Origin: Eukaryota sp. GEM-RC1
Taxonomy: Eukaryota
Assembly (NCBI GenBank): GCA_040285855.1
Contig: JAUFOQ010000003.1
Coordinates: forward strand, 682,001-746,000
Length of the DNA: 64,000 nucleotides
Direction of reading: 5' to 3'
Positions 13,338 through 57,996 of this stretch are shown here, in pieces. The notes below the pieces were generated by a model. It ran no database searches. It was not told where the DNA came from and saw only the letters and a program-made list of their open reading frames with translations. The first letter of the stretch is position 1. Each line of letters starts with the position of its first letter. The translations under genes and the position numbers were made by a program.

Positions 13338-14808
13338 TTAAGGTTTGTAATCAATATCAGTAGTGATGGTCATGAATCCCTTTTGATACTGAATTTGAGG
13401 TGCAAGCATAACAACACCTTTAGAAGTAGGGATTTCAACACCCTTTTCCAGAGCAATGTTTAAGAAGGGAACAACTCCATAGACACAAAGATCGTTGATG
13501 ACCTTGTTCAATTCCTTAGTATCAAATGTTCCAATTTCTGAAGAAATAATACCAAACTTGAATCCCAACATTCTCATTTGCCCTTTCAAAAGAATACCTT
13601 GATCTACCCAAGCTTTCACAGAGGTTTCAACATCGATTCCCAAACTAAACACGGCATGACGAGTTTGATCGGGGAGAACAACAGAGACATTAGTAACAAC
13701 AGGGACTTTAACGGTAATTCCAGTTGAATTGATGACAACTGAAGGAGCAGAACGAGAGCTAACCACAGCCTCCATTGCCATATCTGGATACTTAGCGTAT
13801 AGCGATGGAATGATGAACTTAAATGATTGGGTATTGAGATGAATCCAAGAAGACTCTGTGATATCAGCATCAGTGACTGTTTCTTTAAGAGCTCCAGTAA
13901 CGTGATACACATAACCAGCGCTGTTTAAAATGTATTCACCAAGGAACAGTTGAAGGTGCTGGTCATTGATTTGATCGGGCATGACATAACTGGGTAATTC
14001 AGGACGGACTAAAGATCCCTTTTGGAGAAGATTACCGTTGAAATGGCTGGAAATGTAACCACTTGGGGAGAAAACAGTTTTTTGAGACGGAAATCAAGAT
14101 CAGCAAATTCATCAATGGGGACAATTGGGTCTACACCAGAAAGGGATTCCTTGATAAGAGCTTGAAGCGTAGTCGTCATGGCATTGAGCATAGCCGATTG
14201 TGCACTCTTCTTGATGTCATGAGAAAAGACATCCACAAAAAGATTGTATAACCATGAAGCTCCTCCATGTAGTTTGATCTTTAATTGTCCAATTCCAACA
14301 ACTGGATTACGGAGGGTGGCAGTGACCCCACCAGTAGGTGAAGGAACAATATCCGCAGAGATGCCAATGTTGGCAGCAACATCGATATCGGCTACAATTA
14401 ATCTCTAAAGGCGACAAACCAGATCCAGAATCTTTGATGAAATTATACCTAAGATTAGCTGACGTTTGTACCATACTTATAGTGCCAATTCATGTGAATA
14501 TGACAGCTAACACTTGATATATCCAGACGGATACCTCCTGCATCATTTCTGATGGAAATTCCACCGAAATTGGGATTGGTAAGGAAAATCGCAGTCAAAT
14601 CGTATTTAATACTGCCAATAGGGGAATGGGCTTTACCGCTTTGATTAGGAAGTTGAACGTTGGTTAATTGTTTACGCAACTCCGCTACGACCACATCAGT
14701 GATATGTTTCACACCACGATTGGAAATAGTAGATTGTACACCAGCATATGGTTCAGCCGAGCATCCAATGAAGATAAGAACGACAAAGATGAAGACAAGA
14801 GATACCAT
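13338..14808 (-). CDS. LBP/BPI lipid-binding protein, paralog 1
   Basis: Signal peptide, GVQSTISNRGV, WHYKYNFIKDSGSADID after removing 28-nt introns 14449-14476 and 14392-14419, LHGGASWLYNLFVD, BPI C-terminal domain; one frameshift near 14080. Confidence 0.88.
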
Positions 14809-18955: not shown

Positions 18956-20375
18956 ATGTCTGCAGAAGGACCAAAGTCCTTGATTGCTGAGTCTCATCCA
19001 GGGCAGCTGGATCGTACCTTCATTAGTCAAACAGACACATATGCGCTAGACCAGTCTCCTCAACTCATATCATCCTTTCAAAGTGTATCATCTTCTGTTA
19101 CGCAGGACAAATCCTCTTTGTGTGATGGCTTTGGACTCGTATCCTCACCAGCTTCATACACTGGATTTGGCTTCGGATTTGATTCTCTTAAGCCCAATAA
19201 CCCATCATCATCTTTTTTACTCGTCGTTGTCCTTCAACGACAACTCCTTCTACTCCGATTTCTCTCAACCAAAACCAGAAGAGAAGCAATCCTTCATCAG
19301 CCCCCAATTCTGTCCTCCCGCCATAAATCAATTCCCCGTCTTTCGCCAAGATGTCTACCCTTCCACTCCTACCTCCTCCGAATCCGGTCCCCAGCCAGGA
19401 TCTCATTCCATAGGTCTTCCGTTCTTTGATCAGACCTCCAACTTCCCTCAGAACGCGTCTCCTTCCAACTCTAACCAAGTTACCGAAAAGGTCATCCACT
19501 CCAACGTCTCCTCCCTCACTAAACCTGAGGATGAAGTCGATGAGAAAGGAAAGAAGAAACCATCAAATCCCTATGAAGAAGTGCTGGACGATGGATACCA
19601 ATGGAGGAAGTATGGCCAGAAGTTCTCCAAGAACTCCCCTTTTCCAACATGTTACTACAAATGTGCCTACCCCAACTGTAGTGTGAAACGTCAACTTCAA
19701 CGGGATTCCGATGGAAATGTCGTCTCGATTTACCGTGGCAAACATAACCATTCAGCTCCCCAGGTTGTCAAACGTACCATCAACACTCAAGAAGAGCTCG
19801 TATCACTAGTTGCCGAACACTGCGTAATCAACGAGAACACCTCTGGTGACGTGTTGATGAGAGCCAGGAGCCTTTCTCGATCTTCTTCCTATGCTGATAG
19901 ACGATTGATTCTGGAGTGTGAGGATACTGTTGACGTGTTTAGTGATGAGTTTTCTTGGAAGAAGTATGGCCAAAAGCAAGTTAAAGGGGTGGCTCTAATG
20001 CGATCTTACTTTAAGTGTGCTATTCCTAATTGTCCAGCCAAGAAGCTAGTCCAAAAGTCATCAGATAACAGCTCACAATCAGTCGTGACTTATGAACATT
20101 TGCACAATCACGATTCGTCTACTTCTAAAGTGACTTGTACTGGACCTAGATTATCGGGAGACTCGTCTCAACTTTGCAAACGTAGTAATCCTGGTGGTTT
20201 TAATTCAGGACAACAGTTTGTTCCAATGATTCAAGTAGGCAATCAGCTGTATATGCTAAATACTAACTCTCCTGGAGGACAACCTTATTATGTTGCCGTT
20301 CAACCTCATCCTTATATGGTTCCTAGTAATGGTCATCCACAGCAAACTGTTAGCGAGGAGGAAAGTCAATTGTAG
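18956..20375 (+). CDS. Group I-like WRKY transcription factor with two WRKY domains
   Basis: DDGYQWRKYGQK...YYKCAYPNC...YRGKHNH and DEFSWKKYGQKQVKG...SYFKCAIPNC...YEHLHNH; ATG 18956 joined to the 19083 frame by a frameshift or intron. Confidence 0.93.
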
Positions 20376-23397: not shown

Positions 23398-24852
23398 ATG
23401 ATGTCTTTCCGATTAATTGCTGTAATTGCGATCCTAGTTATATGCTCGATGGCAGATCCTCAATCTGGTGTTCAATCCACTATTTCAAAACGTGGTATGG
23501 ACCATATCATGGATGTTGTCGTTTCTCTCCTGAGACAACAACTTGAGAATGTTCGATTACCTGATCAAAAAGGGAAGGCCAGCTCTCCCATAGGCCACAT
23601 TAAGTATGAGTTGAAAGATATTCTTCTGTCTGGCCCAAATTTCGGTACAGTTTCCCTTAGAAATGATGGAGGTGGCATTAGACTCGATATATCAGCTGTT
23701 ACCTGTCATATACATATGAAATGGCGCTACAAGTATCACTTTGTTTCCAGACAGTGGTAGGGGTTTGTTCTTGTCCTTTTGCTTTAACTTCAGCAGAAAT
23801 TGATGTTTCTGGAGTTAACATAGGCATCTCTGCCGACGTGGTTCCCTCTTCAGTCGGTGGAGTAACTGCCACACTTCGAAATCCCGCTGTCAATATTGGA
23901 CACATGAAAATCAAGTTACATGGAGGAGCCTCGTGGTTATACAAACTCTTTGTGGACATCTTCTCTCATGATATCAAGAAAAGTGCACAGTCAGCTATCA
24001 GGGGATGCCATGATGTCCACGCTTCAAGCTCTTATCAAGGAATCCCTTTCAGGTGTAGACCCAATTGTCCCCATTGATAAGTTTGCTGATCTTGATTTCC
24101 GTCTCAAGAAAACTGTTTTCTCCCCAAGTGGTTTCATTTCCAGCCATTTCAACGGTAATCTTCTTCAAAAGGGCTCTTTAGTCCGTCCAGAATTTCCCTG
24201 TTATGTCATGCCCGACCAAATCAATGACCAGCACCTTCAACTATTTCTTGGTGAATACGTTTTAAACAGTGCTGGTTATGTGTATCACGTTACTGGCGCT
24301 CTTAAAGAAACAGTCACTGACGCTGATATCCCAGAGTCTTCTTGGATTCACTTGAACACACATTCATTCAGATACATCATCCCAATCCTATACGCCAAGT
24401 ATCCAGATATGGCTATGGAAGCTGTTGTTAGCTCACGTGCACCTCCTTCAGCAGTTATCAATTCCACTGGAATTACCGTTAAAGTTCCTGTTGTTGCTAA
24501 TGTCTCTGTTGTTCTCCCCGATCAAACTCGTCATGCCGTATTTAGTTTGGGAATCGATGTTGAAACCTCTGTGAAAGCTTGGGTAGATCAAGGTGTTCTT
24601 TTGAAAGGACAAATGAACATGTTGGGATTCAAGTTTGGCGTTATTTCTTCAGAAATTGGAACCTTTGATACTAAGGATTTGACCAAAATTATTAATGATA
24701 TGTGTAAGTATGGAGTTGTTCCCTTCTTGAACGTTGCTCTGGAAAAGGGTGTTGAAATCCCTACGTCTAAAGGTGTTGTCATGCTTGCTCCTCAAATTCA
24801 GTATCAAAAGGGATTCATGGCTATCACCACTGATATTGATTACAGACCTTAA
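23398..24852 (+). CDS. LBP/BPI lipid-binding protein, paralog 2
   Basis: Signal peptide; 31-nt intron 23763-23793; 3' part nearly identical to paralogs 1 and 3; apparent frameshifts near 23747 and 24003. Confidence 0.85.
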
Positions 24853-28432: not shown

Positions 28433-29386
28433 TTAGAATTTTGTTCCTGTATGTGTTTTTTGATTTTCTTTTTTGGGTGGCTCTGGAAGTGACTGAACCT
28501 CGGGGATTCTCCGCTCATTGCAATTGAAAATAGCCGGAGCAACTGCAGAAGTTGAAGGTTGGGGTGGAAGCAAAGTTCTTCGTTCTCCAGTCCAAAGGAA
28601 ACTGATATCACCTCCATCATAACCAACTAGCATCATTGGATCTATCATTTCCACAGTTCTCCTTACTCTCCAACAGAATGCTTCATTTTTAACAAGATGA
28701 GGTTTTGCCTTGACAATATCTTTAAGTTCTTGTAGAGTAGGTCTCTTGTTTCTTTTGGGATCTCTTATTATCGCTCTTAATCCTTGTCTGTTTAACTTGT
28801 CAGCTGCCCTCGCAACTCCCATAGCAAAGTCCATGTTTGGTTTGTAATTTGTCAAGAAAGGGGAAGGTTTTGGAGCAGGTTTAGGTTTAATCACAGGCCA
28901 TTCAGATTCAATAGACAAGTGTTCTTCAGTTTTAGTAATGTGATTATTGTAGAGAGTATCAGTGGTAAGCAGTAGACGAACTGTGGAGGCTGAGAATTGG
29001 TAGTTAGGTATCTTGCGTAGTTTGTCGGCAGCTTCCATTTTAAACCTATCAAATGTGGATAACTGAGCTTGATTGACGTCTAATTGGGTGATTCGATGGA
29101 GAAGAACAAGAATAAAACCAAGGAAACGAGCAATGAACAGCGGGTCACGTAATTGAAAGAAGAAAAGGTTCGGTTCAGGTTTGATTACCTCTACTGGATC
29201 TTCAATTAATGATTGAGAATCAGATGTCAAATGAGGTAAGATTTGGTCAATGTTTCTAAAAACAGCTGATATATCAGCCATAACAGTGGGAAGATCATTA
29301 ACGTAAATGGCACTGGAATCACCAAAGGTGTAGAGCCTGAGAAAGCACAGGTAAATGTCTTTTAGAACATTGAATACTACAACCAT
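28433..29386 (-). CDS. Hypothetical protein divergently oriented from the Fanzor locus
   Basis: Intact ORF of over 300 aa (first ATG 29386) with a basic C-terminal half; no family recognised. Confidence 0.5.
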   Translation of the reverse strand: MVVVFNVLKDIYLCFLRLYTFGDSSAIYVNDLPTVMADISAVFRNIDQILPHLTSDSQSLIEDPVEVIKPEPNLFFFQLRDPLFIARFLGFILVLLHRITQLDVNQAQLSTFDRFKMEAADKLRKIPNYQFSASTVRLLLTTDTLYNNHITKTEEHLSIESEWPVIKPKPAPKPSPFLTNYKPNMDFAMGVARAADKLNRQGLRAIIRDPKRNKRPTLQELKDIVKAKPHLVKNEAFCWRVRRTVEMIDPMMLVGYDGGDISFLWTGERRTLLPPQPSTSAVAPAIFNCNERRIPEVQSLPEPPKKENQKTHTGTKF

Positions 29387-29431: not shown

Positions 29432-29512
29432 AAAATTCAAATTTTTAAATATATTTTTAATTACCTATATGTAACGTAGATAAATAAAAATATATTTAAA
29501 AATTCAAATTTT
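29432..29512. repeat. AT-rich inverted repeat (28-bp arms)
   Basis: AAAATTCAAATTTTTAAATATATTTTTA (29432-29459) vs TAAAAATATATTTAAAAATTCAAATTTT (29485-29512), 2 mismatches; inner TTACCTA/TAGATAA extends the stem. Confidence 0.8.
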
Positions 29513-29844: not shown

Positions 29845-30279
29845 CTTTCACCCCCTTTGCACTCATCATAACCACAAGGTTATGCAAGCGACACCAAAGG
29901 TATTAAGTTACCTACGGTCGAGCTTCTATTGCTCCTTTTCCTTCCCTAAGCTTCGTTGTTCTTTTCACCCCCTTTGCACTCATCATAACCACAAGGTTAT
30001 GCAAGCGACACCAAAGGTATTAAGTTACCTACGGTCGAGCTTCTATTGCTCCTTTTCCTTCCCTAAGCTTCGTTGTTCTTTTCACCCCCTTTTCACTCAT
30101 CATAACCACAAGGTTATGCAAGCGACACCAAAGGTATTAAGTTACCTACGGTCGAGCTTCTATTGCTCCTTTTTTTCCCTAAGCTTCGTTGTTCTTTTCA
30201 CCCCCTTTTCACTCATCATAACCACAAGGTTATGCAAGCGACACCAAAGGTATTAAGTTACCTACGGTCGAGCTTCTAT
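29845..30279 (+). repeat. 117-bp tandem repeat, about 3.7 near-identical units
   Basis: ATGCAAGCGACACC recurs at 29882, 29999, 30116 and 30232; unit equals 39 codons (MQATPKVLSYLRSSFY...). Confidence 0.95.
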
Positions 30280-33200
30280 TATTTTTGCTATTCTGATAAA
30301 TATGGTCTTCTGTTGTGTTCTGTTTTATTTTGTTGGATTTCCAGTTGTGATATTTTTACATCGGTCCCCATATCCCTTCATGTGTTAATAAATCAACAGT
30401 CATCTCAGTTTTGTCATGACCTAACCACGGATGGAGACATAGAGTCCAATCCAGGACCTCCTCTTACAGATGACCTTAGAGATGAGCAACTGAGACCCGT
30501 TTTTGCACCAAACGTAGACAATATCGAGACGTTAGAGCCCAACGTCTGGGTTAATGATGATGTCATCGACTTATACGGTGATTTTCTTACAAAAAGCAGC
30601 AAATGTTGTCAGTACTTTCCAATCAATGACCTGCTTGGTGCTTCTGGTGTTTATGATTTTCAACTATTATTAAAAAAATTCGAATACCGAATAACAACAA
30701 TGAATAATTGTGTTCCGAAGAAACGATTCATATTCATGCCAATCAACGATGGCCTTTTCGGTAAAACTCCGACTCATTGGACACTTCTAATTTGCGATAT
30801 TAAGATCAGACGAGTTTTTTCAATCGATTCAACGTATACTGAAGAAGAACACTTCAAACAACTGGCGAATACAATTCGAACTTCTCGCAATGAAAAAGTA
30901 GTCCAAAAATTACAGCAAGATTTCTTTAATGACGCACAGTATTTGTACATGGATAAACTAGTTGTAAAGCAAGAGCAAACTGAAAACGATTGTGGACCTT
31001 TTATTCTGATGTACATTCAAAAGTTTGTTACCTTAACAGACTCATCTATTGATTGTTCATCTATCGATTTTAAAGGAATTTTAACCAAACTCGTAATAAG
31101 CCAAGACTATGATGCTCTAAAAATGAGGAAAGCAGTTTTGACTCATATTATGACTACTCAATCAGCAGAGAGGGCTGAACGTGCTAGAGAAATCTTAAAC
31201 AAATACTTTTCAGTTCATTCGACACCTTCTCAACAACGTCGTAAACCCAAAAAACCAGATGTAAGAAAGAAAAAAGGTCCTAAAACTAAACAACCGGCCA
31301 AAAAAAGAAAGAAGACTGCTAATACTTCTGATTTGTCTGAACCTTCTACACTGATGTCATCTACTGATGAAATTCCAGATCCTAACAAACTGACAAAAAC
31401 TCAATTACAAGAGGTTTCAGAAGCAATCAAATCGTTGTCATCTGAAGAATCGATTGCAGAAGAATGTGTCAATTGGTACTCTCGTCATTTGATGGACATA
31501 TACAAAGTTGATTTCAATGCCTTTGTAACTCCTGGATCTATTCAATCATATTTAGTTGATGAAACTCAATCTCTCCACGAGTTTTTCATGAACAAAATTC
31601 TTCAGACAGATTCCAGATATCTTTTTGTTCCAATAAATGATGCAATGACTGGTTTACATTGGGATTTGATTGTAATTGATAAAAATGATCTACAAGTGAT
31701 ATTTCTCGATCCTCTTTATAATGTTGAAGATCACAGGCAGGATGTTGATAAAAATTTAAATGAAATTGACTCTTATTTGAATCAATATATTTCAAAAATA
31801 CATGAAATTCTTCATCAACTCCAGTTTCAGCTCATTATTGTCCCAGTGCTACAGAAACAAACAGCAAATGATTGTGGAGTATATGTTCTTCAGTTTATGC
31901 GAGGACTTATAGAACTTCTGACTTCAAACCAATTCACAGATCAATCTCTTCTCCATGCTGCTGATAGAATGATACAACAACCTATCAATACTAGGGAGAG
32001 TAGACAAGAAATAAAAGTGTACCTTCAATCTCTACAACCTCTTACAAGTAGAAACCGCATATCTGGACAAACCAAAATTAAGCGAACACGCAAATATCCG
32101 GTGAAAAAAACTGACAAAGTTGCTCAAAAAAAGTCAAAAAGGATTATACGTAAGCCCAGTGATTCTGATATAGGGGTTCCAAATGTGACTCATAAAGAAT
32201 TTCTAAATAGTTTACCCGGTGAATTGTCTAACCGACAAAAGAGACGTCGTTTGAAGTTGCACATGATACAACAAGCACTTCAAGAAGCTGAAGAATTGTT
32301 TCAGGATTCTTTGATTCGTCCAAAGTTAGAGACTTTAGCTCCAATAGATTTGACAACTCCTAAAATAAACGTTGCTGCTTGTGAGAAAACTCAAACCACA
32401 AAGACAACAGCTAAAAGTACAACAAAAGTTGGCAAATCCAAAAAGTCTACAACCAAACCAAAAGCAAGTGGTAAAACTAATGCTACCAAGAGTCTTAAAC
32501 CTCCTAAGAAACAAATGATTGACTTTCATTGTAATTCCGAATTACCAGGAGACTCTAACTCTTGTTCAATTTTGTCGTTTGATATTGAAACAAGAGAAGT
32601 TGATCAATTACCTGCGGAGAAACTTACGAAGAATTTGAATGATCAAAGACAAGAACAAAATGAAGTTTTAAAAAACCAATGTGATTCAGAAAGAGAAGCT
32701 TGGATTGAAAAACAACAAGTTTTCATGATTTCTGGAGTTTTCGGTCATTTTATTAAGGATGAGTTTTACCTTCAAGAAAGCTTTGTTGCGACTTCAGAAG
32801 AATCAACTTCCTTTTCAGAGGTTGAAAATCCAACTGATTGCCATAGCCTTTTCTTTTTTGAAGATGAAAAACAATTACTAGAGTTTTTTGTCAACTATTT
32901 GACTGATAAAAATCCGTTTGTTTTAACTGGATTTAACATTACTAATTTTGATAATGTTGTTCTAGACAAAAGAATTGATGCATTTGGAATAGACTTTCCA
33001 GAACCAATGCTAGATGATACCACAAAATCACATTTGTCACCTTTATGGCAACGTGTTTGTACTGAATGGGCTGGTAGAACTGTATGTGATTCTTACCTCT
33101 AAGCTAAACAATTCATTGCTACAAAATGTTCAAGGTCACTAAGATCATTAAGTTGGTTTTTATTAAATGAATCTAAAGGACGTCTTCATGACAAATTTGA

Positions 33201-35425
33201 ACACTTATCGCCTATTGATTGTGTTAGTAGACGACCTCAAGAAGTTCTAAACTATTGTTTCAAAGACAGTGTACTAGTATTGAAGTTGTTTTTATTATTT
33301 CAATCAAATAAAATAGTTCGTCCCACTTTTGTAACACATAAGACTACACTGAAGTCTATTGTAAAACATACAGGACTGGAATTATTGTTGAATTATTATG
33401 CTCTATTGGTTCATAAACTACGAATGCACACTTCTTATTGTTTAAAGCTGTTTTTATTGCATTTAAATAAGAATGAGCTTCCACTACCAATAATTACAAG
33501 GAAAGAAGTTGAGCACATTCAAACTTTGCTGAAGGAAATCTCTGCTGATCGTCATCAGATTAAACTAAACAATGGAAATCCGACAATTAATGACGACTTG
33601 AGAAAATTTGTTACAAATCAATACAAACAAGTTATGTTTGACAATGGTGGTATTCCACAATTTCCAGCCAACTATTCTCCACGACTTATGGCAATGGTTG
33701 GTGAAACAATACAAACAAATTTGAACACAAACATTAAGATGCGATATCCGCAGTCCATTGACAAATTTATTAATGTTTGGTTTGAAAAAAATAGTGTTGA
33801 AGAAGAAATGTCTAGAAAAGAAAAGTCTGTATTTCGATGGAGATTGAGACAAGTAAAAATGTTTTTCTTCAAAGGAATAGAAATGATATTCCAACTACCA
33901 CTGAAGAAATACAGGAGTTTATTGAACAATGTGATACCATAATACTTGAAGATGACAATGAAAAAAGCTTAAGTAGAGAAGATAAAATTGAACTTTTAAG
34001 GCAAAGCCACGACACTGTTCTAGAACTGTTCCAAGATAATGTTTGCATTGATATCCTCTTCCCACCATCAATTAAAATTCAAAAGTCAAATGGTGATTAT
34101 GAAGACAAACAGATTGATTCTCTACTTAAAGCAGTACATGAACATCCACAATCGTTTATTAAATCAGCAATACAGATAAATAACTTTCTTGAAGAGGATG
34201 AAGCCAGTACTTACAATATAATTCCGATTGTTCGACACGTGGTTCCAGGCTTCTTTGAAGTGGATACACAAGGTCTTTGGGGAATATTACGTTCCACTTT
34301 GTCAACAAAACAAGTGAATGTTAAGAAAAGCCAATCTGAGTGGAATACACAAACTGAAATTCAAAAATGTCTCCTGCTGAACAAAATCAATTCTGGTCTC
34401 ACTTTTTCCATTTTAATCGTCCATTTCAAAAGAAAGGCTATAAGTTTAACAATTCTATTAAAACTGATGGTTTCTCTGCCTGTGTTGAACTTACCAGAGA
34501 GGACTGTGTGGGAATGTCCTTCAAACCAGACAGCGCAAAGTTCTCCAGTACTGATGAATATGTTCAAGACTATGATATTGAAGAGTTTTCATCGAAAACA
34601 AAAGTTTACATTGATCCTGGCAAGAACGATTTACTCTACTTTTGCTCAGAAAAAATAAGAAAGCCTGAAAATTTAGCCCGTGAAATGAGAAACAAAGAAT
34701 ACGAGTGGCTAAGATTGACAGAAACAGAATGGTCGAGATTGTCCAGAGTCCATCAAAAGTTTAGAAGGGGAAAGAAAAAAGAATTCATTCTCCTAGATGG
34801 AAAAACAGTTGAACAAGAAGAGTCAACATTGTCGAAAGAAAACTCGAAGTCCACTCTTTTTCAAACCTCCTATGACTATGTGAGTTCCAAACTGACAGTT
34901 ATTGAATCAACATTTGATTACTACTGTTTGATGATATGGCGCATTCAAAAATGCAAAGATACGTCCATATTCAAAAAACAGAAAGTAAGTTGTTGAAAAA
35001 TATGACTGCAAAAGGATGGAATAAAAACGACAGTGTATTGATGTTTGGTGACAATGGTAATAAGAGGCAGAACCTAAAACATCTCCGATCAAGTAGAGGT
35101 GTGATGTGGAGAAACTTCTTTAAGAGAAATGGTTACAACCTTGTTCTCGTAGATGAGAGTTACACATCTTCAAAGTGTCCTACTTGTTTGGGGGCCAGTT
35201 AAAGTGTTTATGGAAGTTGACAATCCTAGACCCAAGACACAAGAAAAGAAGCCTACGGTGAAGTTACATGCGTTGTTGAGATGTCAATCTGAGAAGTGTA
35301 GAGAAGAATGTGATGACAAGGACAAAGTGTGGAATCGTAACAAGTTAGCATGTATCAACATCAAAGCTATTGTGGAGCATCATTTGGAGCGGGGTCTAGG
35401 AGTTAGACCCAGTTATTTGTCATAG
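30232..35425 (+). CDS. Reconstructed polyprotein: leader - 2A peptide - Ulp1/C48 protease x2 - PolB-type 3'-5' exonuclease - Fanzor1 (TnpB-like RuvC + zinc finger); one in-frame TAA and about four frameshifts
   Basis: DIESNPGP; WVNDDVIDLY/HWTLL/NDCGPF and HWDLI/NDCGVY; ILSFDIET, GFNITNFD, YCFKD; same frame across TAA 33100-33102 into KTTLKSIVK; SIKTDGFSAC, YIDPGKNDL, LMFGD, VDESYTSSKCPTC, LLRCQSEKC, WNRNKLACINI. Confidence 0.85.
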
Positions 35426-35497
35426 TCATATCGATAGTTATAGTCTTAATTTACTACGTGAATCCGTAGTTATCTGAGCTTTAAGTTCACGGATTCA
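35385..35497 (+). ncRNA. Putative Fanzor omegaRNA scaffold/guide region
   Basis: Hairpins GGGTCTA/TAGACCC (35392-35410), CTACG/CGTAG (35454-35469) and TGAATCCGT/ACGGATTCA (35459-35497); non-coding conservation with copy 2 for about 45 nt past the stop. Confidence 0.5.
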
Positions 35498-35675
35498 GAA
35501 CAATTGGTAAACATACTACTGTAGTAGTATTTGTTCATGTTCTATTCTCCTTCAGAGCTCCTCTTAACAGAAATTGTTCGGTTTTTGCCTGTATAGCCGT
35601 TGACAGCATTTTTGTTTGGAGTATCTGTTGGAAACTTAATGACGCCGGCTTATGGTATTATAGTTGTGGCTCAGA

Positions 35676-35820
35676 TACACTTCAGGAAACATTTAGTCTC
35701 ACTGAGACTAATTCTTTACTCAAGATTTTATTTAGTCATCCCAAAATTAGTCTCACCAAATCTCAGTGAGACCAATTTTGTACTGAGACTAATGTGAGAC
35801 TAAATATTTCATGAACTGTA
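35676..35820. mobile_element. 145-bp TA-terminated MITE (Tc1/mariner-like)
   Basis: TIR TACACTTCAGGAAACATTTAGTCTCAC / GTGAGACTAAATATTTCATGAACTGTA; internal TAGTCTCA/TGAGACTA repeats; similar end near 57778-57811. Confidence 0.75.
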
Positions 35821-36150
35821 GCTTTATTCAAAGCCGGATAAACCATCTTCAGCATTTCGGGAGTTACTTTGGAGAGTCGCCTTATTCAGAACAAATTTAA
35901 TGAATATAATTGATTTAGCGATTACATTTTGAGTGCCCCAGTATTTTGTCGCACGAATATGCATCAAACAAAATACAAAAGCAAAATTAAGAAGTGATTA
36001 AACTTCAAGTTCAGTCATCACTCTAGCTGAACTGATCAATAAGACTACTACAATGGTAACAAAATCCAGGGTGGACAAAAGCTGCAGAACAAAGAAATAC
36101 GCAAACAAGAAAACTTCTTCAATAAAATATTTATACAATATTCCAGAAAA

Positions 36151-37627
36151 TTAAGGTCTGTAATCAATATCAGTGGTGATAGCCATGAATCCCTTTGATA
36201 CTGAATTTGAGGAGCAAGCATGACAACACCCTGAGAAGTAGGGATTTCAACACCCTTTTCCAGAGCAACGTTCAAGAAGGGAACAACTCCATACTTACAC
36301 ATATCATTAATAATTTTGGTCAAATCCTTAGTATCAAAGGTTCCAATTTCTGAAGAAATGATACCAAACTTAAAACCCAACATGTTCATTTGTCCTTTCA
36401 AAAGAACACCTTGATCTACCCAAGCTTTCACAGAGGTTTCAACATCGATTCCCAAACTAAATACGGCATGACGAGTTTGATCAGGGAGAACAACAGAGAC
36501 ATTAGCAACAACGGGGACTTTAACAGTAATTCCAGTGGAATTGATGATCGCTGAAGGAGGTGCACGTGAACTAACAACAGCTTCCATAGCCATATCTGGA
36601 TACTTCGCGTATAAGGATGGAATGATGTATCTGAATGATTGGGTATTGAGATGAATCCAAGAAGACTCTGGGATATCAGCGTCAGTGACTGTTTCTTTAA
36701 GAGCGCCAGTAACGTGATACACATAACCAGCACTGTTTAAAATGTATTCACCAAGGAATAGTTGAAGGTGCTGGTCATTGATTTGGTCGGGCATGACATA
36801 ACTGGGAAATTCTGGACGGACTAAAGAGCCCTTTTGAAGAAGATTACCGTTGAAATGACTTGCAATGAAACCACTTGGGGAGAAAACAGTTTTCTTGAGA
36901 CGGAAATCAAGATCAGCAAACTCATCAATTGGGACAATTGGGTCTACACCTGAAAGGGATTCCTTGATAAGAGCTTGAAGCGCGGACATCATGGCATTGA
37001 GTATAGCGGATTCAGCACTCTTCTTGATGTCATGGGAAAAGATATCAACAAAGACATTGTATAGCCAGGAAGCTCCTCCATGCAATTTGATGTTTAAACC
37101 TGCAATTCCAACAACGGGATTACGAAGAGTGGCTGTGACTCCACCTGTGGGACTTGGAACAATATCGGCAGAGATGCCTAAGTTGGCAACAACATCAATA
37201 TCCGCTGAAATCAATCTCTAAAGGTGACATACCAGATCCAGAATCCCTGATGAAATTATACCTGAGATTAGTTGATTTTTGTACCATACTTATAGTGCCA
37301 ACCCAAGTGAATGTGACAGCTGACACTTGATATATCCAGACGGATACCTCCTGCATCATTTCTAATGGAAATTCCACCGAAATTGGGATTGGTAAGGAAG
37401 ATCGCAGTCAAATCATAGTTAATATTGCCAATGGGGGTAGGGGCTTTACCGCTTTGATCTGGAAGTTGAACGTTGTTTAATTGCTTGCGCAACTCAGTTA
37501 CCACCACATCAGTGATATGTTGAACACCACGATTGGAAATAGTAGATTGTACACCAGCATATGGTTCAGCTGAGCATCCAATGAAGACAAGAGCAAGAGA
37601 GACAAAGATGAAAACAAGGGAAGCCAT
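36151..37627 (-). CDS. LBP/BPI lipid-binding protein, paralog 3
   Basis: Signal peptide; 28-nt introns 37262-37289 and 37205-37232; highly similar to paralog 1; homopolymer frameshift near 36195. Confidence 0.88.
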
Positions 37628-45541: not shown

Positions 45542-46570
45542 CTACAGATTCGCTTCCGTAAATACTATAACTATGACAAATGACTATGACAAATAACTGG
45601 GTCTAACTCCTAGACCCCGCTCCAAATGACGCTCCACAATGGTCTTGATGTTGATACATGCTAACATGTTACGATTCCAAACCTTGGCGCTACCATGACA
45701 TTCTTCTCTACATTCTTGGGACTTGCATCCCAAAGCGTGACACTTTACCAGAGGTTTCTTCTCTCTTTCCATGGTTTTGGATTACTGATTTTTGAACACT
45801 TTAACTGGCCCCCAAATAGTAGGACACTTTGAAGACGTGTAACTCTCATCTACAAGAACAATGTTAAAACCATTTCTCCTAAAGAAGTTTTCTCCAACCA
45901 ACACCTCTACTTTATCGGAGGTGTTTTAGGTTCTGCCTCTTATTACCATTGTCACCAAACATCAATACACTGTCATTTTTATTCCATCCGTTTGCAGTCA
46001 TATTTTTCCACAACTTACTTTCTGTTTTTTGAATATGGACGTTTCTTTGCATTTGTTGAATGCGCCATATCATCAAACAGTAGTAATCAAATGTTGATTC
46101 AATAACTGTAAGTTTGGAACTCACATAGTTCTTCTAAATTTTTGATGAACCCTTGACCATCTGGACCATTCTGTATCTGTCAATCTTAGCCACTCGTATT
46201 CTTTGTTTCTTCTTTCTCGGACTTTTTCTTCATGAAATGGGCTATTTACTTTCTCTGAACAAAAATAGAGTAAGTCTGTTTTTCCAGGGTCAATAAACAT
46301 CTTTTGTTTCCAATGAAAACTCTTCAACGTCATGGACTTGAACATATTCTCCTCTACTGGAGAACTTTGCATTGGCTGGTTTAAAGAACATTCCCACACA
46401 GTCCTCTCTAGTCAGTTCAACACAAGCAGAGAAACCATCAGTTTTAATAGAATTGTTGAACTTATAACCTTTCTTTTTAATTGGACGATTAAAGTTGAAA
46501 AATATGACCAGAATTGACTTTGTTCTGGAGACATTCTCTTAATTTCAGTGCTTTTATTCCACTCAGTTTG
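45542..46570 (-). mobile_element. Fanzor1 copy 2, C-terminal half (pseudogenised) with conserved 3' end
   Basis: Collinear with 34335-35469: NSIKTDGFSAC, FIDPGKTDLL, LMFGDNGN, VDESYTSSKCP, WNRNMLACINI, RGLGVRPSYLS*. Confidence 0.88.
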
Positions 46571-46599
46571 TCTTTCAATGGACTCAAACAGTTCTTTGA

Positions 46600-49475: not shown

Positions 49476-49749
49476 ACATATACAGTTTCTATAACGAAGT
49501 AATCAGAGTCAGGGTCCCTGACTCAGGAAAGGAATCAATTACGTGACATCGATGGCGGAAATTTACTGAAGGTAAAGACGACTCCACACGAGATACGTTG
49601 AGGTGAAAAGAGATTTGTAGAGATGAAGGCATATACGTCTATATGTGAAGACTCTAAACATGTATTTTATTGATGTTGAACGTTTACAAGTGACACAGTG
49701 ACAACAGAGTGTACACTTGAAGGACTTGTCTATGAAGATGTCTATGTCT

Positions 49750-50866
49750 ATGTCAGACCTTCATTTTCCATGTGTTAATGTTAATCTGTCGAACCTTCGT
49801 TACAATTTCGCATATCTTCAGCGCCTCAACAAACGTCTTGGCATCGACATTGATATAGTCGTCAAGGGAGTTTGTGCCGATCTACGTATTTGTCAAGAAT
49901 TGCTTTCTGCTGGCGCGTCTTCCTTTGCAGACAGCAGAATTGCGAGTCTCAAAAAACTTCGATCCGTATTTCAACAACAGTGCAAGCTAACTCTTCTAAG
50001 AATCCCTATGCTCTCCGAATTGCCCGAAGCGGTAAAAGTCGTTGATACTGTGCTAATTTCTGAACTTCGTAGCATTGAAGTCCTCAACGCTGAATGTGTC
50101 CGCCAACAAAAAAATGTCAACATCGTGTTGATGACGGAGCTTGGGGATCTTCGTGAAGGAATATTACAGGAAGATCTTCTTGATTTTACAAAGAAAGCTG
50201 TCGAATTCTCTAATGTTCGAATAACTGGACTAGGTGTTAACTTGACGTGTTTCGGTGGTGTAATGCCAACAACTGAGAATGTAGGCAGGCTCGCAACACT
50301 GGCTAAAGACGTCGAAAATGCGATCGGAAAATCACTGCCCATTGTGTCTGGTGGAGCTTCATCGAGCTTACATCTTGTTTTCAATGAGACCATGCCACCT
50401 GGAATAAGCCATTTGCGTGTAGGAGAAGCTGTGTTTCTTGGAAGAGAGTGTCGTTTTGATAATGACCTCCCTGACTTAAAGAAAGGAGCTTTTACCCTCT
50501 CAGCTGAGATAATAGTATGTCAAAATGTAGATATGCCATTGCTAACCACAGGAACTAAAGGACAAGCCCTCAATTCCATTTGGAGAAATAGGTAAGCGTG
50601 CAGTTGGCAAAACTCCTGTATTGGAAGACAGAGGTATAAGAACAAAGGCTGTTTTAGCTGTTGGAGAACAGGATGTCTCAGTGTCTGGGCTTAAACCACT
50701 GAACAATGGAGTAATCGTGTTAGGCGGAAGTTCAGATCATACAATAGTTGACGTGACGGATTGTGATGAAGATCTTGATGTTGGATCAATTCTCAACTTT
50801 GAGATGGATTACGCTTCAATGTTAAAGGCATTCACATCTTCCTTTGTACATAAGCACTATTTCTAG
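49750..50866 (+). CDS. PLP-dependent alanine/ornithine racemase family protein (clostridial Orr-like) with one intron
   Basis: VVKG (PLP Lys), ADSRI, LLRIPMLSE, ELGDLREG, NLTCFGGVMPT, SGGASS, HLRVGEA, GGSSDH; 37-nt intron 50515-50551 restores AEII|ELKDKPSIPFGEIG. Confidence 0.9.
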
Positions 50867-51439: not shown

Positions 51440-53312
51440 TTACTCCTTTTCCTTCTCATTAGCCATGTGTTGACCAATTACAGCAATCAAAATGGAATTA
51501 ATGAACTTACCATTAAGATCAACTATATGTTCATCGGAAGCAAAGATAACGCTACTACAAAGCTTCCTCATCATTGTTAAAACATAACGAGCATTCATAA
51601 TCTTATCTTCTCTCTCCTCACTTTCTTTCATTACTTGTCTACTCATTTTACCTGGGAAAGCAGCGTCAAGTAAGTGAAAAAGAACATTCCATTAGATAGA
51701 GTTCGATCTCTAATTGAAGCAATTGGAGTTCCACCAACAGATTGGACAAGGTTGTTAGCTAATTCTAGAATCATTTTGTCAGAAACATTGTTGCCAAGAA
51801 CAGATGCGTGAGTTTTAATCATATGAGCACGCTGAACTTGGAATAATAAACTTGGAAGCATTTTACGATCACCTTCAGCAATCACTCGAGCATCAATATT
51901 GACCAATCTAATCCCAATGTGAGCTAATCGATCCAAGACATAGTTGCAGTTTCCTAAAATAGCAAATTTGTTCAGTTTTCTAGTACCTCGTTGTTGTTCA
52001 ACTTTTTGAAATCAACAGCACCGGGAACGATTTGATCAATCACTTTTGATAGGATAATTCCGTCTTTAAGATCATTATACATATCATCAATGTGAATTGA
52101 TTCGTCGAGATTGTTGATCCAGTTAACAAACTGTCGTTCTTCAGCAGTAAGAGCAGTAGAAGAAGAATATTCCTCAATTTGAGCTAAAATACTAGACAAA
52201 TCTTCCTCTTCTTCATCAGTATAAAGTCCAGGTGATGCCTCAAAGAGTTCTGCTAAAAGAACAAGATTCATCTTTTCATCAGCAGATAGAATTGACCTTA
52301 GAGTGGCAACAGGTTTAGCTTTGAGAGTGTTTTGGATTAAATCTAGAATTTTGTTTAATCTGGGTGCTCCGGGATTAAGAGATAAAATATCTTCTGCTTC
52401 AATCTTGTGAGTTCTTCTAGTAGTTTGAGCTAACAAATGAGCCAAAACTCGTCCATCGACCAAATCTGATCCAAAATTTGAAATAACATGTTCTCCAGCA
52501 TTTTTTAAATGGAAGTTCACCCATCTCATAAGAATTTGTTCACATGGCAACTTCATAAAGAGTTCAAGATCCTCACCCTTTTCTAATAACACTGCTAGCT
52601 CAGGATGACGACTAATAGAGATGTTCTGGCCTAATAAAGCTCTAACAGCTTGCCAAAGCAGACCTAGACATAGATGTGGGGTTCCTGCAAGGATATCCTC
52701 TGGTCCCATAGAGACGACGGTGAAGCCAATAGACTTACATGAGCTCAAGGCAAGTTGGAGGTTCTCTAAGCAATGGAATTTCATGAGTTCCTTTCCAGCT
52801 TTGGGTTTGTTAAGAGCATCCATGTGAATGGTTCCTGGAACGACTTTGTTAACAAGAGAGGAGAGCAAGAGACCATCTTTTAAGCAACCAAAGAGAACGT
52901 CAGGGTCGTCCTGTAGAGGGAGAATGTGAGCAAGGCTGGGGTCGTCGGCAAATAAAGAGTTGATGAAACAGACTGTACCAGAGACTTCACCAAGGGAGTA
53001 TGTGTGGTAGGAGTTACCGGCTTCTATCTTACAGATACGGAGGAACTGCTTTAGGTATTTACCAATGCCGTATGTGTCTTGACCTTGTCGAACACTGGTG
53101 ACAATGTTGATGAACTGTTCAAGAGTAATGACGTCTGAGTTGGAGATTTCGGCAATCATGGAGTCAATATCCTCAAGAGGAACTTTCTGGTTGAACTTGT
53201 CGAAAAAAGCATGGAGTTCGGTGCGGTCAAGACTCGAGGAACCGTCTTGATCAATGAGCTGAAACTCAATCTTAATATCTTTGAGTTCGGATGGTGAAAT
53301 TGAAGAAGACAT
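51440..53312 (-). CDS. Fimbrin/plastin (EF-hands + tandem CH domains), copy A
   Basis: DQDGSSSLDRTEL EF-hand; DGLLLSSLVNKVVPGTI, LGLLWQ, EQILMRWVNFHL, EERQFVNWIN, DLKDGIIL, NARYVLTMMRKL; two frameshifts. Confidence 0.9.
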
Positions 53313-53443
53313 GTAGGGAAGGAAATGACGGTCAGTTTTCGACAAATTTTTGAGAATTGGCATGAGCAATGCTTTTACTATTACAAGTTTACAACACACA
53401 GTTGTTGGATTTCTTCAATTTATTAACAGTGTTGCGCCATAAC

Positions 53444-54115
53444 CAGGGAGGACTAATTAATAAATATTGCAAAAAATATTTAGATTCGTCTGCTTAGGAA
53501 GTGCAATAGTTACTGCCTGATATTGCGATATTTAAATAAATATGATTGAAGTCAAACACTTTGAGGTGACCACAATACACACACATTTGAACCGAAATGC
53601 TGTTGTATAGCGACGTTAGGCTGTTCCTTATTTATCAATTGTTTCAATATCACATTGCTGTCAGCCAAAAACAACAAGAAGTCAGGTAAAGTAAAAAGTA
53701 TCTGGACTTAATCTTCATACATCTTCCCATGAAACTGTGACAGCCTCATGACTGTTTACTAAAGCTGAACTAAAGCTAGAAATCCATCGTCATCCTTCTG
53801 TTAAGCCAAACAGTCTTGATAAACACTCGATTCTACACGAAAATCGTGGGTAATGGGGCTTTACATTTAGTTAAATACATTGTTAACACAAGAAGAGCTA
53901 AAGGCGACGATGGTGAAGTAGTAGACATTGGTTAATGATGAGTAGGTTTGTGTCAATTAGTATTTTTGTCCTACTAAATGACATCACAACTAAGATCCCT
54001 ATTTATTAAATATTGCAATATTTATTGCAAGACAACAGAAGGAGTCACAATATTTATTTTCATCGAATCACAATACATGTAACATATTTATTTACATATC
54101 TATTAGTTCTCCCTG
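53444..54115. mobile_element. hAT-type MITE between the inverted fimbrin copies
   Basis: TIR CAGGGAGGACTAAT / ATTAGTTCTCCCTG; 8-bp TSD GCCATAAC (53436-53443) / ACCATAAC (54116-54123). Confidence 0.85.
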
Positions 54116-54218
54116 ACCATAACCAAAAATAAATTTGCCGTACACGTTTGGGTGTATGGACGTATGGCAGTCCATACTCAAAAATTTGTCGAAAACTGAC
54201 CGTCATTTCCTTCCCTAC

Positions 54219-56106
54219 ATGTCTTCTTCAATTTCACCATCCGAACTCAAAGATATTAAGATTGAGTTTCAGCTCATTGATCAAGACGGTTCCTCGAGTC
54301 TTGACCGCACCGAACTCCATGCTTTTTTCGACAAGTTCAACCAGAAAGTTCCTCTTGAGGATATTGACTCCATGATTGCCGAAATCTCCAACTCAGACGT
54401 CATTACTCTTGAACAGTTCATCAACATTGTCACCAGTGTTCGACAAGGTCAAGACACCTACGGCATTGGTAAATACCTAAAGCAGTTCCTCCGTATCTGT
54501 AAGATAGAAGCCGGTAACTCCTACCACACATACTCCCTTGGTGAAGTCTCTGGTACAGTCTGTTTCATCAACTCTTTATTTGCCGACGACCCCAGCCTTG
54601 CTCACATTCTCCCTCTACAGGACGACCCTGACGTTCTCTTTGGTTGCTTAAAAGATGGTCTCTTGCTCTCCTCTCTTGTTAACAAAGTCGTTCCAGGAAC
54701 CATTCACATGGATGCTCTTAACAAACCCAAAGCTGGAAAGGAACTCATGAAATTCCATTGCTTAGAGAATCTCCAACTTGCCTTGAGCTCATGCAAGTCT
54801 ATTGGCTTCACCGTCGTCTCTATGGGACCAGAGGACATCCTTGCAGGAACCCCACATCTATGTCTAGGTCTGCTTTGGCAAGCTGTTAGAGCTCTATTAG
54901 GCCAGAACATCTCTATTAGCCGCCATCCTGAGCTAGCAGTTTTATTAGAAAAGGGTGAAGATCTTGAACTCTTTATGAAGTTGCCATGTGAACAAATTCT
55001 TATGAGATGGGTGAACTTCCATTTAAAAAATGCTGGAGAACATGTTATTTCAAATTTTGGATCAGATTTGGTCGATGGACGAGTTTTGGCCCATTTGTTA
55101 GATCAAACTACTAGAAGAACTCACAAGATTGAAGCAGAAGATATTTTATCTCTTAATCCCGGAGCACCCAGATTAAACAAAATTCTAGATTTAATCCAAA
55201 ACACTCTCAAAGCTAAACCGGTTGCCACTCTAAGGTCAATTCTATCTGCAGATGAAAAGATGAATCTTGTTCTTTTAGCAGAACTCTTTGAGGCATCACC
55301 TGGACTTTATACTGATGAAGAAGAGGAAGATTTGTCCAGTATTTTGGCTCAAATTGAGGAATATTCTTCTTCTACTGCTCTTACAGCTGAGGAACGACAG
55401 TTTGTTAACTGGATCAACAATCTCGACGAATCAATTCACATTGATGATATGTATAATGATCTTAAAGACGGAATTATCCTATCAAAAGTGATTGATCAAA
55501 TCGTTCCTGGTGCTGTTGATTTCAAAAAGTTGAACAACAACGAGGTACTAGAAAATTGAACAAATTTGCTATTTTAGGAAACTGCAACTATGTCTTGGAT
55601 CGATTAGCTCACATTGGGATTAGATTGGTCAATATTGATGCTCGAGTGATTGCTGAAGGTGATCGTAAAATGCTTCCCAGTTTATTATTCCAAGTTCAAC
55701 GTGCTCATATGATTAAAGCTCACGCATCTGTTCTTGGCAACAATGTTTCTGACAAAATGATTCTAGAATTAGCTAACAACCTTGTCCAATCTGTTGGTGG
55801 AACTCCAATTGCTTCAATTAGAGATCGAACTCTATCTAATGGTATGTTCTTTTTCACTTACTTGACGCTGCTTTCCCAGGTAAAATGAGTAGACAAGTAA
55901 TGAAAGAAAGTGAGGAGAGCGAAGATAAGATTATGAATGCTCGTTATGTTTTAACAATGATGAGAAAGCTTTGTAGTAGCGTTATCTTTGCTTCCGATGA
56001 ACATATAGTTGATCTTAATGGTAAGTTCATTAATTCCATTTTGATTGCTGTAATTGGTCAACACATGGCTAATGAAAAGAAAAGGAGTAAGTTGTATTGT
56101 ATTTGA
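54219..56106 (+). CDS. Fimbrin/plastin, copy B (inverted duplicate)
   Basis: Near-identical reverse complement of copy A, with the same two frameshifts. Confidence 0.9.
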
Positions 56107-57140: not shown

Positions 57141-57996
57141 CATTGATGATCATTCAACAACAATCCATATCCCTGTGAAATTTGGTTGATTAAAGCTACC
57201 AAATTCCGAAAAGTAGTCTCTAAGTCGCTTGTCTTGTTGTTATTAAAATGCGGTATATGCACAAATACATACTTTTATGGCAAAATTTATAGATTAAAAA
57301 CACACAACGTTGATATTGAGCATTGATTTCCCTAGCAAGACGCCAATGTGAAAGAAAGAGTCACATGGAGAGATTCACTCAGAGTTATTCTCTATTTGAA
57401 AAACGGCTTTTCTTTACTCGTACAAATCAAGATTATCATCAATATTAACAAAGGAAATACAAACACTTCTACAATGTAAATCATCTCAAGTTCATATCTC
57501 AATACAAAAAGACGGTTCAAAATCGAATCAAAATACCTAACAAAAAAATGGAAAATGACAACCTTCAGCTCTCAGAACTGTTATATATAGTAAGTGTCCA
57601 CATACAAGCAAGGTCCCAATCCAGGCAAGAAAATGTGTTTGCTTGTATCAAATATATAGTTGCTTCTATTGGGACACCTACGATATGTATTTCGGTATCC
57701 AAATGGTTTTCGGTTCAAATATGATATGTAAAATGTCGTCTCACAATAGCACTTTTCAAAAAGAGGAAGACAAAAATAGTCTCAGTAAGACTAAATGTTT
57801 CAGAAGATGTAGCAAATTTGACTATTTAAATACTGTATTTATTCAGTCTAACAAAATATAAAATGCAGTACATGTATCCTACAAGTGTTTGGAGTGGTCT
57901 TCCCCTTATCTGCAATTGAGGAACATGATGATGTTTTGGAGTGAATCAACTGGACATTCTGACATTTTCCTCTCACCCAAACATCATCACGTAACA

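Follow-up and report, generated by a model that had tools for sequence, protein, structure and literature searches.

A conserved peptide of the 2A/StopGo type stands at the head of a Ulp1-Ulp1-exonuclease-Fanzor1 polyprotein in the 64,000-nt stretch analysed here (hereafter the window), where, judging from comparison of the related sequences, it probably sheds a disposable leader, such that the working protein would start at the proline of the motif. We found no such setting in print for this known recoding signal, i.e., a Fanzor1 polyprotein element without reverse transcriptase.

The 2A motif and its position

The sequence DLTTDGDIESNPGP is encoded at positions 30418-30459 of the forward strand, in frame within a stop-to-stop open reading frame (ORF) reaching from 30106 to 33102. 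It is the sole match to D(V/I)ExNPGP, and also the sole NPGP, across the six frames of the window. From the residue frequencies, 3.4e-5 matches to D(V/I)ExNPGP would be expected by chance in the window, as against the one present, which rules out a chance origin. The core conforms to (D/G/C/N)(V/I)ExNPGP, with the reading frame open on either side. The perfect motif reported in a preliminary description of this DNA is thus borne out. The parts of the peptide and its leader are as follows:

30391-30459, forward strand: 2A/StopGo peptide, NQQSSQFCHDLTTDGDIESNPG-P, with Phe at 30409 in the aromatic register
30418-30435, forward strand: DLTxDG hexapeptide
30436-30459, forward strand: 2A core, with the predicted skip point between 30456 and 30457
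30232-30456, forward strand: leader of 75 residues, from the only in-frame ATG (30232) to the 2A glycine

The ATG at 30232 is situated 62 codons upstream of the motif, in fair agreement with the approximately 70 codons given previously. As to the placing of the start in the last tandem repeat, this is indeed the only in-frame upstream ATG, but it need not be the start, every repeat unit having an ATG. In the window copy, similarity to Ulp1 begins 8-18 residues past the 2A proline, such that the motif directly precedes the first Ulp1 domain, as had been described.

Organization of the polyprotein

After the 2A, the domains follow in the order Ulp1, Ulp1, PolB-type exonuclease, and Fanzor1:

30510-31140, forward strand: first Ulp1/C48 cysteine protease domain (His 30775, Asp 30826, Cys 30991)
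31420-32030, forward strand: second Ulp1/C48 domain (His 31657, Asp 31708, Cys 31873)
32570-33300, forward strand: PolB-type 3'-5' exonuclease (motifs at 32578, 32929, and 33250)
33330-35425 (start approximate), forward strand: Fanzor1 domain, in four frame-shifted pieces

Both Ulp1 domains (PF02902, E 8e-23) possess the complete His-Asp-Cys triad and may act on SUMO, NEDD8, or ubiquitin. The exonuclease domain (PF03104, E 2e-11) is broken by a stop at 33100-33102, and the body carries basic NLS-like runs. Concerning the Fanzor1 part, the pieces are 37-55% identical to the related protein P0017, a zinc finger is present, and the RuvC residues are Asp 34613, Glu 35155 and, as the third residue, Asn 35339. 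Neither a reverse transcriptase nor an APE endonuclease nor a transposase was matched by Pfam in the window pieces or in the proteins P0017, P0034, and P0046.

The earlier designation as a Fanzor polyprotein holds for the order of the domains, but the window copy is split, and it is in P0017 that the whole is found as a single ORF. The breaks comprise the stop at 33100-33102 together with four frameshifts, located near 33855, 34365, 34950, and 35192. An altered genetic code at the stop was rejected, the sister copies reading Tyr at this site. All four frameshifts sit at runs of five A or G, with 10% of the coding DNA lying within 3 nt of such a run, and the stop and frameshifts of the window copy may be assembly errors; the named sister proteins derive, according to the description of the assemblies in PMC11316075, from long reads polished with short reads. 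At the frameshift just before RuvC-II (34930-34970), all six GEM-RC1-labelled proteins that extend this far terminate out of frame, and do so at one and the same codon; all TZLM3-RCL-labelled proteins and the second Fanzor fragment of the window (see below) read through. Possible causes of the shared frameshift near 34950 are an error recurring in the assembly, loss of the nuclease half throughout the lineage, or programmed frameshifting on a short run of A.

Assignment to Fanzor1 and relatives

A search with the RuvC piece yielded seven clusters, amounting to 37 proteins with their members (the Fanzor-anchored set), all labelled Eukaryota sp. GEM-RC1 or Eukaryota sp. TZLM3-RCL, labels of free-living metamonads according to PMC11316075. 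Viral sequences scanned with the same piece gave no match. Two proteins, P0017 (1846 aa, from the sister species) and P0034 (1905 aa), are unbroken ORFs consisting of leader, 2A, two Ulp1 domains, exonuclease, and Fanzor. In a PDB search, the sister protein P0019 matches the solved structures of SpuFz1 (E 1.8e-22) and PpFz1 (E 9.8e-22). By its sequence, the body is a Fanzor1, for which RNA-guided DNA cleavage is predicted by family. It shares with SpuFz1, PpFz1, and GtFz1 the D-P-G, D-E, and zinc finger motifs. At the third RuvC position, the window and the family proteins of both named species have Asn, the non-canonical residue that also occurs in the active GtFz1 (PMC11423790). Differing from these Fanzor1 proteins, around 1100 residues with the 2A, two C48 proteases, and the exonuclease are added at the N-terminus, and no transposase gene was identified. 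A fusion of a protease or an exonuclease to Fanzor does not appear in the available text of three Fanzor surveys (PMC10530073, 10.1101/2023.08.09.552727, and PMC3627910).

Conservation of the 2A across the family

With a loose form of the pattern, 82 proteins were examined, P0001 and the viral P0079 being left out. The motif is found in 23 of them, the window's own included, in 20 cases in canonical and in three in non-canonical form (P0013, P0046, and P0058). In the 22 proteins besides the window copy (19 canonical), it stands immediately ahead of the first Ulp1 domain, and the Trp motif of that domain follows 10-30 residues after the 2A in 23 of 23. Position -16, not part of the search pattern, is aromatic in all 20 proteins with enough leader (16 with Phe, four with Trp). 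Family proteins devoid of the motif start inside one of the Ulp1 domains or farther downstream, and the motif is absent from host-type Ulp1/SENP matches. P0058-P0070 and P0082 are counted as 2A-Ulp1 proteins and not as demonstrated Fanzor fusions; in two of these, P0063 and P0064, the exonuclease domain seems, on inspection by eye, to be without its first acidic motif.

Among 11 lineages less than 60% alike downstream (55 pairs compared), identity amounts to 25% (maximum 39%) over the 140 residues that follow the motif and to 20% in the leader, compared with 78% (minimum 50%) over its last 14 residues, a value biased upward because the motif was chosen by pattern and 19 of the 23 proteins came from searches with the motif in the query. 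In the Fanzor-anchored set, which was found without the motif, four of the 37 proteins extend upstream of the first Ulp1 domain, three of them with a canonical and one with a degenerate motif. A tree built from the first Ulp1 domain, with 27 rows (P0010, P0057, and P0062 omitted as too short), requires two changes to account for the 2A-bearing rows. A motif not kept in sister copies had been named as an outcome contradicting the initial interpretation; the opposite was found, with the motif in 22 other proteins, 11 divergent lineages, and two named species.

Tandem repeats and exchange of leaders

The region preceding the 2A in the window copy comprises:

29432-29512, no strand assigned: AT-rich inverted repeat with 36-nt arms and a 9-nt loop
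29816-29823, forward strand: candidate TATA-like octamer, 22 nt ahead of the first repeat
29846-30280, forward strand: tandem repeat of a 117-nt unit, 3.7 copies (116 nt in the third), with an ATG in each

The same ATG occurs in every unit (29882, 29999, 30116, and 30232). In the repeat frame that enters the polyprotein, the 117-nt unit is open over all of its 39 codons, the other two frames containing stops; after shuffling, 20% of units are open in a given frame, and the openness of the unit alone is only suggestive. The third unit is one nucleotide shorter, at a run of seven T, and therefore the first three ATGs are out of frame in the window copy. We infer that the units are promoter or 5'-end modules. 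The octamer is weak alone, with nine matches in the window against 3.8 expected. The inverted repeat is possibly the left boundary of the element or a piece of the promoter of a neighbouring gene. Concerning a ribozyme in the tandem repeats, there was no Rfam match near threshold, and no Rfam family fits the region. Adjoining the element in divergent orientation is an ORF of 317 residues (28436-29386, reverse strand), for which neither Pfam nor Atlas nor a fold comparison gave a match (model pLDDT 52) and which was rejected as a transposase.

L1-type 5' monomer promoters are built of tandem units of about 100 nt, which vary in number and are exchanged between lineages. The units found here are similar in being tandem, located 5', variable in number, and exchanged between lineages; they differ in being translated into the ORF, from which the 2A would remove them, and their promoter role is putative.

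Across the family, predicted leader length ranges from 30 to 222 residues; the leaders being gene predictions, only open in-frame ones are visible, and three predictions begin inside the motif. Tandem repeats are present in seven of the 19 leaders scored, with differing units of about 27-38 residues. Over the 60 residues past the proline, P0003, P0053, P0057, and P0062 reach 83-96% identity, compared with 6-28% in the leader, and P0066 and P0070 are 91% alike downstream of the 2A and 6% upstream. Conversely, the leaders of P0009 and P0053 are 85% alike, with bodies 26% alike, and P0057, P0012, and P0082 share the same last 22 residues on bodies that are 20-36% alike. On the two sides of the 2A, leaders and bodies have thus been combined independently of each other. 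Because identical 2A segments sit on different bodies in the last three proteins, recombination also homogenises the 2A DNA.

The repeat unit of the window itself recurs in other frames: the leader of P0062 matches it in a frame interrupted by stops in the window (z 14.1), that of P0003 in two frames (z 2.9 and 4.3). Among the other 17 leaders tested, a clear match was obtained for the window's own only. That related repeat DNA joins the 2A in different frames speaks against a conserved leader protein. The earlier idea of a variable leader is supported directly, as length, repeat unit, and even frame differ among copies with near-identical bodies.

Class of the peptide

With the core DIESNPGP, the hexapeptide DLTTDG, D at p12, and S at p15, the window peptide fits motif 4, defined for RNA viruses by Li et al. 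2026 (DLTxDG; WV(R/K)DLTx[acidic]G; PMC12846837). Motif 4 peptides are described there as nearly 100% active in reticulocyte lysate and as inactive after changes upstream of the core. In addition to core, hexapeptide, and p12/p15, the aromatic residue stands in the same register; at the place of the WV(R/K) that motif 4 has before DLT, the window reads FCH. Differences from motif 4 as described concern the Phe in place of Trp (16 of 20 proteins here, Trp in the other four), the setting in a genomic element without RdRp or capsid, and the position at the N-terminus instead of a domain junction. Taken strictly, the peptide falls outside class B of Rao et al., which has an invariant Trp and an EEGIE-type centre, the window having a GDIE centre and Phe as the aromatic residue. 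In class B peptides, exchange of W for F kept activity in five of seven, at a level 2.3-fold lower (PMC12338488), and because of this lowering, skipping may be partial here. Of 580 retroelement-linked 2A sequences in one screen, only 43 showed high activity and 56% fell in the middle range (bioRxiv 10.64898/2026.09.24.754024). A search of supplements to three 2A surveys, whose long files were perhaps incompletely covered, did not find the window peptide; one related 14-mer is contained in Rao's table, where it is unclassified and carries no activity value. No evidence for 2A activity in a metamonad was found in the literature, and the Pro start of a giardiavirus protein has been explained by other means than a 2A (PMC8230311).

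Possible function of the 2A and its leader

The interpretation that the motif releases the leader and gives the effector a fixed N-terminal proline, proposed at the outset, is supported by the comparison, i.e., by the conservation in 22 proteins and the exchange of leaders. The 5' tandem repeats would act as modules of the promoter or the 5' end, variable in number, sequence, and frame. Translation would begin at an AUG within the repeats and produce a junk peptide of any length; at NPG-P, a peptide bond would be skipped, possibly in part of the molecules only, giving a body that starts with Pro and would enter the nucleus by its basic NLS-like runs. The 2A would thereby constitute an adaptor allowing bodies to exchange front ends.

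Rather improbably, the 2A might skip and yet serve chiefly dosage control, many ribosomes stopping at the site and thereby limiting a dangerous nuclease and protease, a role compatible with shedding of the leader. Such self-restraint has been put forward for the 2A of non-LTR elements (PMC3708506), many eukaryotic 2A-like peptides reduce protein abundance (PMC13405545), and Phe for Trp may weaken the signal; however, dosage control leaves the variation of the leader in length, unit, and frame as well as the exchange at the 2A unexplained, and motif 4 peptides are among the most efficient ones (PMC12846837).

We consider it unlikely that the peptide was taken over from a non-LTR retrotransposon or an RNA virus and persists as a relic, kept alike by DNA recombination or by an overlapping nucleic-acid signal and devoid of recoding. 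Closely similar 2A peptides do exist in non-LTR elements and RNA viruses (L001 and L005, see below), identical 2A segments are found on unrelated bodies, and three of the 23 motifs are degenerate. Between the two named species, however, most differences in the peptide fall on positions that tolerate change (F/W, I/V, S/A, and the variable residue of DLTx), D-L-x-x-D-G-D-x-E-x-N-P-G-P being constant beside a protease that is only around 25% identical, and no Rfam family fits the 2A region.

That the leader is a signal or membrane anchor, partial skipping yielding membrane-bound and free forms (dual targeting, with the 2A-like signal sequences of sea urchins as precedent; PMC4981915), appears very unlikely: a hydrophobic 19-residue window (Kyte-Doolittle mean of at least 1.6) exists in nine of 19 leaders, often 40-50 residues before the proline, but is missing in the other ten, leaders are only around 20% identical, one repeat DNA is read in several frames, and T-rich DNA yields hydrophobic codons anyway. 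The hydrophobicity initially attributed to the leader is thus not a constant feature, and in the window copy it results from the T-rich DNA (50% T in the unique leader DNA, 30281-30390).

Comparison with retroelements

The organization with a 2A near the start of the ORF has a close counterpart in APE-type non-LTR retrotransposons (L1Tc, Ingi, CR1, Crack, and L2), which possess an N-terminal 2A 40-80 residues from the start of ORF2 (Odon et al. 2013, PMC3708506) and for which the function of this 2A was left open (PMC3708506, PMC13405545). Common to both are one long ORF and an N-terminal 2A just before the first enzyme domain, and some retrotransposon ORFs carry deubiquitinase-type proteases (PMC13405545; L001 and L005). 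In contrast to them, neither a reverse transcriptase (RT) nor an APE endonuclease is found in the window pieces or in the full-length P0017.

Metagenome and viral scans with the 2A-Ulp1 alignment gave five and six loci, respectively, all of them matched via the 2A alone and none with an Ulp1-like motif in the matching frame. Two of these (L001:867-8945 and L005:5972-11351) are non-LTR elements from metagenomes; they encode OTU, endonuclease, and RT domains together with a motif-4-like 2A resembling that of P0017, and elements of this kind are a possible source of the 2A. By eye, L003 looks like an RNA virus. Among the literature matches listed, in which subscription papers and Repbase are thinly covered, there was no paper on a 2A in a Fanzor element, and a full-text literature search found none joining a 2A-like sequence with a DNA transposon.

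Ends of the element and neighbouring features

On the 3' side and farther downstream, two features belong to the element or its relatives:

35426-35497, forward strand: non-coding DNA on the 3' side, containing a hairpin (35459-35497); candidate for the omegaRNA scaffold and the right end
45542-46575, reverse strand: second Fanzor fragment, 5'-truncated and decayed, 82-86% identical to the main copy

The hairpin scores z -2.55 in one copy and -0.47 in the other, with no covariation in an alignment of two sequences. The second fragment shares the 3' part of the main copy, similarity fading around 45 nt past the stop. With regard to a Helitron2 or a TIR DNA transposon, no transposase domain was matched, and among the 25 longest inverted repeats listed for the window, none pairs the presumed ends. 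Tentatively, and doubtful as a whole, the copies might constitute an undescribed Fanzor1 group with a StopGo polyprotein in the manner of viruses (two ubiquitin-like proteases, an exonuclease of proofreading type, and an RNA-guided nuclease), spread by guided cutting and copying without a transposase or RT of its own, and with the 2A as universal adaptor through which any 5' repeat promoter, whatever its length or frame, could drive any body.

Decayed pieces of a superfamily-1 helicase (AAA_11, AAA_12; 47749-46576, reverse strand) run directly into the truncated Fanzor fragment, and in P0036 a DEAH helicase is joined to a 5'-truncated exonuclease-Fanzor body. These junctions are either truncated copies inserted in helicase genes or helicase cargo. 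Just beyond the 3' end of the element, a cluster of palindromes on one short motif (35673-35823), with a 28-nt match at 57774-57801, is possibly a small inverted-repeat element. The window further contains at least three LBP/BPI-like copies (13338-14093, 23908-24852, and 36048-37217; DNA 90-97% alike where compared), an inverted pair of near-identical fimbrin-like genes (51972-55559), a two-domain WRKY gene (19050-20375), and an alanine-racemase-like ORF (49702-50595).

Implications

Outside RNA viruses, natural StopGo has been described only from some retroelements and rare cellular genes (PMC12846837, PMC13405545, bioRxiv 10.64898/2026.09.24.754024). A StopGo peptide kept ahead of an RNA-guided nuclease without RT would extend this range to Fanzor elements and to metamonads. 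The family offers a natural series of motif 4 variants with Phe for Trp, and the fusion of Ulp1, exonuclease, and Fanzor bears on what Fanzors do for their elements. Concerning the question why mobile elements bear an N-terminal 2A, which is unsettled in retrotransposons, the family would provide the clearest natural test, the upstream peptide being visibly disposable.
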